A stretch of 41,010 nucleotides of DNA, from positions 1-41,010 of the forward strand of contig JAKATE010000002.1 in NCBI GenBank assembly GCA_021828085.1. The letters run 5' to 3'. The notes under the pieces were generated by a model. That model searched no databases. It was not told where the DNA came from and saw only the letters and a program-made list of their open reading frames with translations. Positions 24,087-25,814 of this stretch are shown here, piece by piece (the first letter of the stretch is position 1; each line of letters opens with the position of its first letter). The translations under genes and the position numbers were made by a program. The DNA is from Thermoplasmata archaeon. GTDB taxonomy: Archaea > Thermoplasmatota > Thermoplasmata > Lutacidiplasmatales > UBA184.

Positions 24087-25814
24087 TCAGTAGAGGGAGC
24101 GCTCGCGGTAGCGGCCGAAGACCTCGCCGAGCGCCTGGACGATCTCCCCCAGGGTGGCGCGCGCCTTCACCGCCTCGAGGATGGCCGGCATGGTGTTCTG
24201 CCGCTCGTCCCCGGCGGCCTTCTGGAGCGCATCGAGGCTGCGGGCGGTCCGGGAGGCGTTCCTCCGCGCGCGCAGACGGCGCAGCCGCTCGCTCTGCTTG
24301 CGCCGGGCCTCCTCGGAGATCCTCAGCTTCGGGACCCGGACGGGCGTCTCGGTGGCGTAGGCGTTGACCCCGACCACCTTGCGCTCCCCCGCGTCCACCT
24401 CGCGTTGGAACCGGAAGGAGGCCTCCTGGATCTCCCGCTGGAAGAAGCCGCGCTCGATGCCGGCCACGACGCCCCCCATCTCCTCGATCCGGTCGAAGTA
24501 GCGCCGGGCCTCCTCGCAGAGCCGGTCGGTCAGCCACTCCACGTAGTACGACCCGCCGAACGGATCGACGAAGTCGGCCACCCCGGTCTCCTCGGCGAGG
24601 ATCTGCTGGGTCCTGAGAGCGATCCGGACCGCGCTCTCGCTGGGGAGCTGGAGCGCCTCGTCGTAGGAGTTGGTGTGCAGCGATTGGGTCCCGCCGAGCA
24701 CTCCGGCGAGGGCCTGCACGGTGGTGCGGACGATGTTGAGCTCGGGCTGCTGGGCGGTGCACGAGCAGCCCGCGGTCTGGGTGTGGAAGCGCAGCCAGAG
24801 CGAGCGCTCCTTCTTCGCGCCGTAGCGCTCGCGCAGGCGCTCGGCCCAGAGGCGACGGGCGGCGCGGAACTTGGCGATCTCCTCGAAGAAGTCGTTGTGG
24901 CTGTTGAAGAAGAAGCTGATGCGCGGGGCGAAGTCGTCCACCGGGAGCCCCCGCTCCCGGGTCGCCTCCACGTAGGCGAAGCCGTCGGCGAGCGTGAAGG
25001 CGAGCTCCTGCACCGCCGTGGAGCCGGCCTCCCGGATGTGGTAGCCGGAGACCGAGATCGGGTTCCACCGGGGGAGGTGCTTCGCGCCGTACTCGATGGT
25101 GTCGATGACCAGCCGGAGCGCGGGCCGCGGCGGATAGAGGAACTCCTTCTGCGCGATGTATTCCTTGAGGATGTCGTTCTGCGTCGTGCCCCCCAGGGCC
25201 TCGGGGGGGGTCCGGTGCGCCTCGGCGGTGGCGATGTACATCGCCCAGAGGACCGAGGCCGGGCCGTTGATGGTCATGGAGGTGGTGACCTTCCCCAGCG
25301 GGATCCCGCGGAGGAGCCGGGCCATATCCTCGACGCTGGAGACGTTCACGCCGCACTTCCCCACCTCCCCCGCCGATTCCGGGGCGTCGGCGTCGAGCCC
25401 GTAGAGCGTGGGGTCATCGAAGGCGATGGAGAGGCCGCTCTCCCCGTGGCGGAGCAGGTAGTGGAACCTCTTGTTGGTCTCCTCCGGGGTCGCGAACCCG
25501 GAGAACATCCGCATCGACCAGAGCCTCCCGCGATACATGCTCGCGTGGATCCCTCGCGTGAAGGGGTACTCCCCGGGCAGTTCTGGCTCCCCCCCGGGCG
25601 CGGGACGGGCCAGCGGGTCGTAGAGCCGCTCCACGGGGATCCAAGAGAGGGTCTCGAAGCGGTCCCGGCGCTCCGGGGTCCTCTGGAGCGCGGGGCCAAG
25701 GGTCTCCTCCTCCCAACGGCGGCGCGCCTCGGCCACCCCCTGGAGAGCGGAGGGGACCGGCGGGCGGGCGGAAGGTGCCTCCGGCGGGGGGGTCGCGGCC
25801 TTGGAGGAAGCCAT
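24087..25814 (-). CDS. B12-dependent acyl-CoA mutase large subunit (MCM family; isobutyryl-CoA mutase-like residues)
   Basis: PGEYPFTRG, SMTIN, QNDILKE, ISVSGYHIREAG and QSLHTN. No B12-binding domain, so this is the split type. Confidence 0.93.
   Translation of the reverse strand: MASSKAATPPPEAPSARPPVPSALQGVAEARRRWEEETLGPALQRTPERRDRFETLSWIPVERLYDPLARPAPGGEPELPGEYPFTRGIHASMYRGRLWSMRMFSGFATPEETNKRFHYLLRHGESGLSIAFDDPTLYGLDADAPESAGEVGKCGVNVSSVEDMARLLRGIPLGKVTTSMTINGPASVLWAMYIATAEAHRTPPEALGGTTQNDILKEYIAQKEFLYPPRPALRLVIDTIEYGAKHLPRWNPISVSGYHIREAGSTAVQELAFTLADGFAYVEATRERGLPVDDFAPRISFFFNSHNDFFEEIAKFRAARRLWAERLRERYGAKKERSLWLRFHTQTAGCSCTAQQPELNIVRTTVQALAGVLGGTQSLHTNSYDEALQLPSESAVRIALRTQQILAEETGVADFVDPFGGSYYVEWLTDRLCEEARRYFDRIEEMGGVVAGIERGFFQREIQEASFRFQREVDAGERKVVGVNAYATETPVRVPKLRISEEARRKQSERLRRLRARRNASRTARSLDALQKAAGDERQNTMPAILEAVKARATLGEIVQALGEVFGRYRERSLY

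Follow-up and report, generated by a model that had tools for sequence, protein, structure and literature searches.

At the two specificity positions of the AdoCbl-dependent acyl-CoA mutases, IcmA of Streptomyces, the large subunit of isobutyryl-CoA mutase (ICM), has Phe and Gln. Methylmalonyl-CoA mutase (MCM) has the carboxylate-binding pair Tyr89 and Arg207 instead, and we refer to these two types of enzyme as Phe/Gln and Tyr/Arg. The Xaut_5043/5044 protein pair of X. autotrophicus we take to be an assayed, native pivalyl-CoA mutase. We know of no assayed enzyme from the Thermoplasmata clade, nor of any assayed archaeal enzyme of the Phe/Gln type. Our literature search returned no paper discussing an archaeal ICM enzyme; the only archaeal ICM trace in it was the label "isobutyryl-CoA mutase subunit B" in a Cuniculiplasma proteome study (PMC7285479).

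The window that we analysed is the whole stretch of 41,010 nucleotides from a Thermoplasmata archaeon (contig C252). It contains a mutase large-subunit gene at 24087..25814 on the minus strand (575 amino acids plus stop, with the stop codon at 24087-24089), and the list of open reading frames and the translation confirm this frame as first proposed in the preliminary description. The product matches both PF01642 (713.7 bits against a cut-off of 22.1; residues 55-567, profile positions 2-512 of 512) and TIGR00641 (736.5 bits against 303.8) and is thus, by full-length matches above the cut-offs, a large subunit of an AdoCbl-dependent acyl-CoA mutase. The genes around it (a FolC-like ligase, a diphthamide-synthase-like gene, purL, and endonuclease III) give the mutase no functional context. 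From its residues, paralogy, tree position, synteny, and the gene inventory of the genome, we propose that it probably encodes the catalytic subunit of a two-subunit, AdoCbl-dependent isobutyryl-CoA/n-butyryl-CoA mutase of the ICM type (EC 5.4.99.13). This is a known kind of enzyme; what the proposal offers is a well-founded correction to a generic label rather than a new kind.

The first specificity residue is Phe104 (codon TTC, 25503..25505, minus strand; within WSMRMFSGF), and the second is Gln222 (codon CAG, 25149..25151, minus strand; within KEYIAQKE). HMMER alignments to solved MCM structures place them exactly at the Tyr89 and Arg207 sites: 'wsmrmFsgf' pairs with 'wtirqYagf' and 'keyiaQke' with 'kefmvRnt' of human MCM, and in chain 5req_A of P. 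shermanii they align with chain positions 88 and 206, which correspond to residues 89 and 207 once the one-residue offset is allowed for. Chain 5req_A has Phe at its first specificity site, which fits with its being the Y89F mutant. The codon coordinates and the correspondence with Tyr89/Arg207, both put forward earlier from the letters of the DNA, therefore stand, and so does the Ile/Gln pair ascribed to 2-hydroxyisobutyryl-CoA mutase (HCM), as HcmA (4r3u_A) reads 'wtmrqIagf' and 'keymaQke'. The Phe104 site is that of Ile90 in HcmA. The alignment to 4r3u_A also places Ala131 (codon 25422..25424, minus strand) where 2-hydroxyisobutyryl-CoA mutases have Asp ('lsiAfd' against 'istDfd' in HcmA); this Asp is Asp117 of HcmA. 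Around the Ile and the Asp, 4r3u_A and the HCM-cluster proteins of Mycobacterium ELW1, M. petroleiphilum, and X. autotrophicus (Xaut_5021) have the motifs 'RQIAGF' and 'S[TV]DFD'. We also aligned a Streptomyces protein that exceeds the cut-off of the NCBIfam IcmF equivalog (1917.6 bits against 1500). At the columns of the two specificity residues it has 'ARMFAGE' and 'KEDQGQN'; thus, the query shares with it not only Phe and Gln but also the Met before Phe. With the carboxylate-binding Tyr/Arg pair changed to Phe/Gln, the pocket should accommodate a methyl group, which is uncharged, where MCM holds a carboxylate, a reading by analogy with established structure-function work on MCM, ICM, and HCM.

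Both residues, with Gln in the motif KEY[IT]AQK, are retained in all 120 closest homologues, and Gln stands at the second site in 71 of the 77 open reading frames found by a DNA-pattern scan for WTMRQFAGFG (among the matches listed); thus, the Phe/Gln pair is not due to chance. When 19 sequences of the Tyr/Arg clade were compared with 22 of the Phe/Gln clade, omitting the representative P0130 (MFAQ), columns 104, 137, 222, 223, and 224 separated the groups perfectly. The third fully separating site is Leu137 (codon 25404..25406, minus strand), where all 19 Tyr/Arg-clade sequences have Gln, whereas all 22 Phe/Gln-clade sequences and three HCM sequences have Leu. Positions 223-224 are Lys-Glu in the query and Gly-Thr in the Tyr/Arg group.

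The genome was to be searched, according to the preliminary description, for the small B12-binding subunit, said to lie outside the window, for the G-protein chaperone MeaB, and for a second mutase of the Tyr/Arg type, and we found all three. A second large subunit is encoded on contig C156; it is of the Tyr/Arg type (RQYSGF, KEYASRGT), and its gene adjoins that of a TIGR03081 methylmalonyl-CoA epimerase. The small subunit (144 aa; L003:1456-1890; TIGR00640, 171 bits) carries 'DGHDRG', an instance of the DxHxxG motif, and is encoded on a third contig, C112, directly before MeaB (L003:1887-2897; TIGR00750, 325.2 bits against a cut-off of 240.75); the window contig itself has no small-subunit match. 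C112 is matched by both PF02310 and TIGR00640. PF02310 also matches on contig C218, but we rejected this protein as a small subunit, since it is a B12-binding radical SAM enzyme. We infer that the small subunit on C112 pairs with the large subunit in the window. A PduO-type adenosyltransferase is encoded on contig C8.

The two catalytic paralogues have only the small subunit on C112 between them. One small subunit and one MeaB were likewise found in G010 (listed as 100% complete), G014, and G057, which are Thermoplasmata genomes where each type of catalytic subunit, Phe/Gln and Tyr/Arg, is represented exactly once. We tentatively suggest, with somewhat less than even confidence, that a single AdoCbl-carrying subunit serves both enzymes. 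The small subunit adjoins 10 of the 13 Phe/Gln loci studied in Thermoplasmata, as MeaB does in 10 of 13, whereas the Tyr/Arg gene travels with the epimerase; this suggests that the home partner of the cofactor module is the Phe/Gln enzyme. When the small subunit of this genome is compared with eight that other families encode next to a Phe/Gln gene, identity is 61-68.5% for seven of them and 50.7% for the eighth (family f18); for the one beside the Tyr/Arg gene of G013 it is 54.5%. These values are confounded by kinship and carry no weight in the argument. If the single subunit docks on either barrel, then one scarce cofactor module would be shared and could be re-allocated between ICM and MCM activities. 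We know of no demonstrated B12-binding subunit common to two mutases of different specificity, and a literature search touching on shared B12-binding subunits found no such case.

The Phe/Gln type is common among Thermoplasmata and not special to the source genome. It was present in 57 of the 61 typed Thermoplasmata genomes and was the sole type in 36 of them; in this sample it, and not MCM, is the commonest B12-dependent acyl-CoA mutase. One Phe/Gln operon (L010) is flanked by genes for an enoyl-CoA hydratase and an acyl-CoA dehydrogenase, and another (L014) has a thiolase-like gene nearby. A division of labour between the Phe/Gln and Tyr/Arg paralogues is visible.

In the IQ-TREE phylogeny, the query falls inside a clade of 32 of the 45 sequences (UFBoot 98), the Gln clade, which contains Phe/Gln enzymes of many bacteria and archaea together with 2-hydroxyisobutyryl-CoA mutases; none of the 13 Tyr/Arg sequences falls within it. 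Two FastTree runs agree on this clade (support 0.91 and 0.87). The comparison with the various mutase types that was called for at the outset thus sets the query with Phe/Gln and HcmA-type enzymes, apart from the Tyr/Arg enzymes. It shares the Gln clade with HcmA and with Phe/Gln enzymes of metagenome-assembled genomes labelled Actinomycetes, and the deep branches inside this clade are weakly supported (UFBoot 51-63 in IQ-TREE). A few sequences moved between runs: P0130 was inside the Tyr/Arg clade in one FastTree run and shifted into the Gln clade along with P0161 (QYAR) in the other, and in this other run the small Tyr/Arg group of P0197, L016, and P0156 was nested in the Gln clade at low support. 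The ICM-labelled anchors in these trees are distant IcmF proteins only, and the closest assayed relative is HcmA, which acts on another substrate. Among the Streptomyces sequences, those matched by tblastn against plasmids were Tyr/Arg or IcmF proteins, and the 80 matches listed from a pattern scan of genome contigs included no named Streptomyces. An Actinomycetes-labelled protein used as the query in a homologue search retrieved only Gaiellaceae-type relatives. The protein P0146, considered as an IcmF-like candidate, was rejected: it is a fused, MCM-like chain with no IcmF alignment in the PDB search.

Residues, tree position, the paralogue, and the presence of the small subunit and MeaB all favor the early reading of this gene as an archaeal IcmA-like enzyme. 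Both the substrate and the direction of the reaction we infer as follows. Isobutyryl-CoA and n-butyryl-CoA would be interconverted by a radical mechanism in which the thioester carbon undergoes a 1,2-shift, with the acyl-CoA bound in the barrel of the large subunit and the cofactor carried by the separate B12-binding subunit encoded with MeaB on C112. Isobutyryl-CoA may arise from valine via one of the five 2-oxoacid:ferredoxin oxidoreductases of the genome (5 POR_N matches). The Phe/Gln mutase would then straighten it to butyryl-CoA, which could be oxidised by the acyl-CoA dehydrogenases, hydratases, 3-hydroxyacyl-CoA dehydrogenases, and thiolases of the genome, for which there are seven Acyl-CoA_dh_1, four ECH_1, four 3HCDH_N (at three loci), and nine Thiolase_N matches (eight above cut-off). 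In reverse, the same enzyme would supply branched primers. The methylmalonyl-CoA job would be that of the Tyr/Arg paralogue beside the epimerase.

The alternative that survives best is that the enzyme acts on some other uncharged acyl-CoA or on a broad range of them (isovaleryl-/pivalyl-CoA, C5 substrates of the 2-methylbutyryl-/valeryl type, or longer branched ones), with butyryl/isobutyryl-CoA turnover as a side activity. We consider this unlikely, although it deserves some weight. IcmF, which also has Phe/Gln, is reported to convert isovaleryl-CoA and pivalyl-CoA as well (PMC10481361), so the pair does not fix one substrate. The Phe/Gln clade has further residues of its own (Leu137, Lys223, Glu/Ser224, Cys154, and Trp190), and dozens of residue combinations among 152 aligned family sequences indicate that specificity evolves easily. 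In addition, these archaea probably live by degrading peptides and lipids, and their acyl-CoA dehydrogenases are numerous. On the other hand, the query keeps the exact Phe/Gln pair, and no gene context points towards C5 substrates. The pocket of Xaut_5043 ('RQLIGL', 'ISLLPCCSG', 'FIANHQ') is very different: it has Leu at the Tyr89 site and no KEY.AQKE motif, and the query shows neither of these features.

Much less probable is a second MCM, an isoenzyme retaining the methylmalonyl-CoA reaction despite the residue changes. The source names point that way, the query is 53% identical to the Tyr/Arg paralogue of its own genome, and the 36 of 61 genomes with Phe/Gln only would need another methylmalonyl-CoA converter if that step is required. 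The Arg that binds the substrate carboxylate is replaced by Gln, though, and Tyr by Phe, and the tree sets the query apart from every Tyr/Arg sequence. It scores 594.7 bits against a cut-off of 876 for the MCM equivalog, a weak point in the argument because that model covers the fused type. An adjacent Glyoxalase_4 (epimerase-type) gene was found at all six Tyr/Arg loci of other Thermoplasmata, as it was in the source genome, but at none of the 13 Phe/Gln loci, and the genes around the query are unrelated to epimerase or propionyl-CoA carboxylase.

We give slightly less credence still to a 2-hydroxyisobutyryl-CoA/3-hydroxybutyryl-CoA mutase of the HCM or RCM type, even though the best match among solved structures is HcmA 4r3u_A (E 8.6e-166, 555.9 bits) and HCM sequences share the Gln clade with the query. 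Both HCM-defining residues are absent (Phe for Ile, Ala for Asp), and Ala131 argues against a hydroxyacyl-CoA substrate. The HCM clusters that we examined have an acyl-CoA ligase gene between those for the small subunit and MeaB, and none adjoins the query gene. A decaying or non-catalytic paralogue is the least probable reading of all: in the family of the source genome (f1) the large-subunit gene is indeed located apart from those for the small subunit and MeaB, but the frame is open over its full length with a GC3 of 0.96 (in line with the other window genes), orthologues from nine genomes of the family are 70-78% identical, the specificity motifs are invariant in the 120 homologues, and the catalytic 'SGYH' stretch is kept.

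An ICM-type function, our preferred reading, changes how these genes should be labelled. The sources list the protein either as "methylmalonyl-CoA mutase family protein" or under the name "methylmalonyl-CoA mutase N-terminal domain", labels that are generic or wrong, as the suspicion of misannotation voiced from the DNA alone had anticipated. Cluster look-ups of 10 representatives likewise gave generic names only, and so did ESM Atlas clusters. The methylmalonyl-CoA mutase label is in use elsewhere: a study of Acidiplasma YE-1 places a "methylmalonyl-CoA mutase" among 3HP/4HB genes, with the epimerase and carboxylase missing (PMC12524180). We cite it as an example of the label. The re-reading predicts that valine or isobutyrate is connected to the oxidation of butyrate through a B12-dependent step in Thermoplasmata archaea.

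Compared with the known systems, the query resembles each in part. The split MCM, represented by the paralogue on C156 and by an operon of Ilyobacter polytropus that also holds epimerase and decarboxylase genes, has the same fold and length and probably uses the same small subunit and MeaB; it has Tyr/Arg, Gln137, Gly223, and Thr224, whereas the query has Phe/Gln, Leu, Lys, and Glu, and it always adjoins an epimerase gene. The query matches the pivalyl-CoA mutase pocket of Xaut_5043 ('WTQRQLIGL' and 'YISHFIANHQ', with Leu at the Tyr89 site) at none of these sites. HcmA/HcmB (PDB 4R3U; the M. petroleiphilum plasmid cluster) is the closest solved structure, likewise a split enzyme with MeaB in the Gln clade, and HcmA shares Gln at the Arg207 site and Leu at 137; the sites of Phe104 and Ala131 are occupied by Ile and Asp in HCM, whose clusters include a CoA ligase gene. 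IcmF (PDB 4XC6 and others; NF045497) has the same Arg-Met-Phe ... Gln pattern, as seen in the Streptomyces equivalog, and has its chemistry and a MeaB-type chaperone function in common with the proposed system. IcmF is one chain of ~1,100 aa that holds the B12 domain, the GTPase, and the mutase barrel. The query scores 370.2 bits against NF045497 (cut-off 1500), where it aligns with no more of the profile than its C-terminal barrel (554-1074), and 310 bits against PDB IcmF chains; thus, it is not an IcmF. The IcmA/IcmB enzyme of Streptomyces cinnamonensis (EC 5.4.99.13) shows the same split into a large subunit and a small B12 subunit (~560 and ~140 aa), encoded apart, and the same dependence on AdoCbl, for which the query genome has its DxHxxG small subunit. 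The query differs from it in its archaeal host, in Met instead of Gln before Phe (RMFSGF), in the MeaB gene that follows the small-subunit gene, and in the one small subunit present for two catalytic paralogues.

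The gene at 24087..25814 on the minus strand, identified by ORF listing and translation, encodes a 575-aa acyl-CoA mutase large subunit that, judging from its sequence, is probably the catalytic subunit of an isobutyryl-CoA mutase (ICM)-type enzyme, which supports the interpretation given in the preliminary description. Profile searches gave full-length matches to the large-subunit models (PF01642, 713.7 bits; TIGR00641, 736.5 bits), and the scores were below the equivalog cut-offs for fused methylmalonyl-CoA mutase (MCM; 594.7 versus 876 bits) and for the fused ICM/GTPase IcmF (370.2 versus 1500 bits). 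The preliminary description had pointed to a Phe in WSMRMFSGF and a Gln in KEYIAQKE as the counterparts of MCM Tyr89 and Arg207. Both residues were confirmed by translation and HMMER alignment, and a base-by-base reading of the minus strand places their codons exactly where they had been reported (Phe104, TTC, 25505-25503; Gln222, CAG, 25151-25149). The claimed correspondence also holds in HMMER alignments to solved structures: Phe104 lies opposite the Tyr in the human MCM stretch 'wtirqyagf', and Gln222 lies opposite the Arg in 'kefmvrnt'. In P. shermanii MCM (5req_A), the paired positions are chain residues 88 and 206; correcting for a numbering offset of one makes these residues 89 and 207.

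Named anchor records were obtained by tblastn against plasmids. The clusters of M. petroleiphilum PM1, X. autotrophicus (Xaut_5018-5021), and Mycobacterium ELW1 have one gene order in common (small subunit, CoA ligase, meaB, large subunit), and their large subunits have Ile/Asp/Gln. The pocket of Xaut_5043/5044, which we take to be the native pivalyl-CoA mutase, is very different from that of the query. Streptomyces plasmid genes are of the Tyr/Arg type, as are the genes of Ilyobacter and Brevibacillus, both in MCM operons, and that of Acetoanaerobium, the flank of which is unannotated. A Met-Phe/Gln gene adjoins meaB in Deinococcus sp. KNUC1210, and the Natrinema halophilum megaplasmid NZ_CP084880.1 carries two large-subunit paralogues, 57% (L038) and 55% (L040) identical to the query, the first of which is Phe/Gln. 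In a scan of species genomes, at least 121 stretches matched a high-GC coding of WTMRQFAGFG. Sources among the matches listed were bacterial (Solirubrobacterales, Gaiellaceae, Actinomycetes-labelled MAGs, Gemmatimonadota, Acidobacteriota, Planctomycetota, Nitrospira, and Chloroflexi) and archaeal (haloarchaea and one Thermoplasmatota MAG); the second site in 77 ORFs read from the matches listed was Gln in 71 and Lys in 1, and the pattern was unmatched in 5.

In FastTree trees of 141 and 88 sequences, the query falls in a clade with support of 0.91 and 0.87, respectively, and Gln occupies the Arg207 position in nearly every member. A tree was also built with IQ-TREE (LG+G4, 1000 ultrafast bootstraps) from 45 sequences picked from the 88 and 494 columns, and it groups the query with Phe/Gln and 2-hydroxyisobutyryl-CoA mutase (HCM) sequences in a Gln clade (UFBoot 98) that leaves the 13 Tyr/Arg sequences outside as a basal grade. 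This clade has 32 members: all 27 Phe/Gln sequences, three HCM sequences, Xaut_5043, and the cluster representative P0129. Within it, the query joins other Thermoplasmata Met-Phe/Gln proteins with UFBoot 100, and then those of Thermoplasmata family f18 with 91; inner branches of the clade are weak (51-63), and one Gemmatimonadaceae sequence falls among the Thermoplasmata ones. Some FastTree placements also blur the division: representative P0130 (MFAQ at the four signature sites) was in the Tyr/Arg clade with 141 sequences and in the Gln clade, together with P0161 (QYAR), with 88, and in the 88-sequence tree a small Tyr/Arg group (P0197, L016, and P0156) was nested, at low support, close to HCM. 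We compared columns between 19 Tyr/Arg and 22 Phe/Gln sequences, grouped by the 141-sequence FastTree tree; P0130 and the three HCM sequences were excluded from this comparison. Five columns shared no residue between the groups: 104 (Y/F), 137 (Q/L), 222 (R/Q), 223 (G/K or R), and 224 (T or N/E or S). Thus, the two sites first singled out are among the five best discriminators of 512 columns, with the small circularity that these columns were part of the grouping tree (5 of 494).

The Phe, together with Gln in KEY[IT]AQK, is present in all 120 closest homologs of the query (71-100% identity), which carry the names Thermoplasmata or Thermoplasmatota. In a wider alignment of the query, its paralog, and the 150 best cluster representatives (152 sequences), the commonest four-site signature was QYAR (53 sequences), and MFAQ (8), QFAQ (6), and LFAQ (4) occurred along with dozens of others, QVVV, QIIW, LVVV, and QQDP among them. 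To our knowledge, most of these combinations match no assayed specificity. Within the Thermoplasmata sample, 62 of 101 genomes have a match to the query at E <= 1e-50, including all 10 genomes of its own family, f1; one of these 10 (G098, flagged as unpublished) is counted in both tallies and was left out of typing, as were two partial matches from G029 and G089. Both types were found in 21 of the 61 typed genomes, Phe/Gln alone in 36, and Tyr/Arg alone in 4, where "alone" means that the other type was not found with the query at E <= 1e-50 and several genomes are incomplete. In each of the six family f18 genomes, of which three are single-contig, the sole match is of the Met-Phe/Gln type. Three family f8 genomes have an extra, distant third homolog, 31-34% identical to the query (L231 in G042, L232 in G096, and L234 in G080), with the signature QCIG, QCVD, or QSSS, which is not an MCM, ICM, or HCM pattern. 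One Phe/Gln ortholog (L185, G063:C16:2850-4565) has a single in-frame TAG within the match, which may reflect sequencing error, pseudogenization, or recoding.

The genomic setting of the two types was examined by Pfam annotation of 13 Phe/Gln and 6 Tyr/Arg loci from other Thermoplasmata, with genes within about 2.5 kb counted as neighbors and small subunits located by TIGR00640 and by tblastn. The small B12-binding subunit neighbors the large-subunit gene at 10 of the 13 Phe/Gln loci and 1 of the 6 Tyr/Arg loci (L017), and the same counts apply to MeaB. Three Phe/Gln loci lack the small subunit, and one of them stops at the end of its contig. An epimerase-type Glyoxalase_4 gene is a neighbor at every Tyr/Arg locus (6/6) and at no Phe/Gln locus (0/13). 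L017, which comes from a Tyr/Arg-only genome, holds a complete MCM operon with genes for the small subunit, MeaB, epimerase, large subunit, and carboxyltransferase. A CobA/BtuR-type adenosyltransferase adjoins the Phe/Gln gene at 2 of 13 loci. One genome (G059, contig C1) has two Phe/Gln operons, namely adenosyltransferase, large subunit, small subunit, and MeaB, flanked by enoyl-CoA hydratase and acyl-CoA dehydrogenase (L010), and small subunit, MeaB, and large subunit (L011); at another locus (L014), a thiolase-like gene lies near the Phe/Gln gene. This synteny pattern does not depend on the two residues, and it supports a difference in role between the paralogs.

The query's own genome (2.1 Mb, 263 contigs, 92.8% completeness, 6.2% contamination) contains the partner genes for which a search had been suggested. 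A second large subunit, on contig C156 (554 aa, 'RQYSGF' and 'KEYASRGT'), is of the Tyr/Arg type and adjoins a TIGR03081 methylmalonyl-CoA epimerase, in keeping with the epimerase rule. The Phe/Gln gene lies apart from the small B12-binding subunit (144 aa, 'DGHDRG') and MeaB, which lie next to each other in that order on contig C112; the sole other PF02310 match in the genome is a B12-binding radical SAM protein. A PduO-type adenosyltransferase is also encoded, and profile searches detected 7 Acyl-CoA_dh_1, 4 ECH_1, 4 3HCDH_N (3 loci), 9 Thiolase_N (8 above cut-off), 2 carboxyltransferase, and 5 2-oxoacid:ferredoxin oxidoreductase alpha matches. By this inventory, the equipment for converting valine to isobutyryl-CoA and for butyryl-CoA oxidation is in place, and the two processes would run in that order. 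In this genome and three others (G010, G014, and G057), a single Phe/Gln and a single Tyr/Arg large subunit are accompanied by only one small subunit detected with TIGR00640 and only one MeaB. Both barrels would therefore share one B12-binding subunit, unless a second is missing from all four assemblies; from these gene counts, we tentatively suggest a common small subunit/MeaB module. Genome G047 has two small subunits (TIGR00640) and three large ones; the second small subunit (G047:C28:117950-118330) lies beside the third paralog, L016, a Tyr/Arg protein ('PFTMRQYSGFA') that is 46% identical to the query and groups with P0156 and P0197 in the 88-sequence tree.

Within the window, the neighbors of the mutase gene (a FolC-like ligase, endonuclease III, a diphthamide-synthase-like gene, and purL) offer no functional context. 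The other genes of the window are archaeal housekeeping genes, such as those for TFIIB, RNA polymerase subunits, the proteasome, FttA, alanyl-tRNA synthetase, and purL/purS. Elsewhere in the window, three consecutive plus-strand genes (5075-8551) encode a flavoprotein of the fumarate reductase/succinate dehydrogenase type, an Fe-S subunit, and a cysteine-rich CCG-domain protein; as a set, they resemble a thiol:fumarate reductase or a non-canonical Sdh. The plus strand also encodes a 633-aa sedolisin-type acid peptidase with a pro-kumamolisin activation domain (8715-10613) and a 575-aa ORF of high GC3 that matches no Pfam family (10994-12718). A KaiC/GvpD-like P-loop ATPase with GvpD_P-loop and GvpD_bR2 domains is located at 17648-19198 (minus strand); no gas-vesicle genes were seen near it within the window.

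The chemistry of ICM and the Phe/Gln rule are already known, as is the annotation of ICM-type enzymes as MCM by mistake. The present finding is therefore a sound re-annotation, and our analysis contributes figures for the class as a whole, a rule of synteny, and the question of a shared small subunit. Widespread mislabelling of IcmF is mentioned in a 2020 paper with reference to Cracan et al. 2010 (PMC7764203), and a review from 2010 still described ICM as an enzyme that "is only known from bacteria" (PMC2847961). No paper about an ICM enzyme of archaea turned up in the literature searched; the sole archaeal trace found was the label "isobutyryl-CoA mutase subunit B" in a Cuniculiplasma proteome study (PMC7285479). 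A transcriptome paper on Acidiplasma sp. YE-1 lists a 'methylmalonyl-CoA mutase' gene as support for a 3HP/4HB cycle, although it gives the epimerase and acetyl/propionyl-CoA carboxylase as not found (PMC12524180); this combination would fit a Phe/Gln-type enzyme.

Among solved structures, the query scores highest against HcmA (4r3u_A, 555.9 bits); human MCM reaches 466 bits and IcmF 310 bits. HcmA has Ile and Gln at the two sites, as the preliminary description had said of HCM, and an Asp opposite Ala131 of the query; given also the Tyr/Arg of MCM, the query has neither the MCM nor the HCM pair. The Met that precedes its Phe also precedes Tyr in the Acetoanaerobium protein and in that of the Ilyobacter MCM operon, so this position is not decisive for substrate. 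A Streptomyces IcmF equivalog (1917.6 bits, above the NCBIfam cut-off) carries 'ARMFAGE' and 'KEDQGQN' in the Phe/Gln columns of the query; thus, the unusual Met before Phe occurs in a bona fide ICM-type family too.
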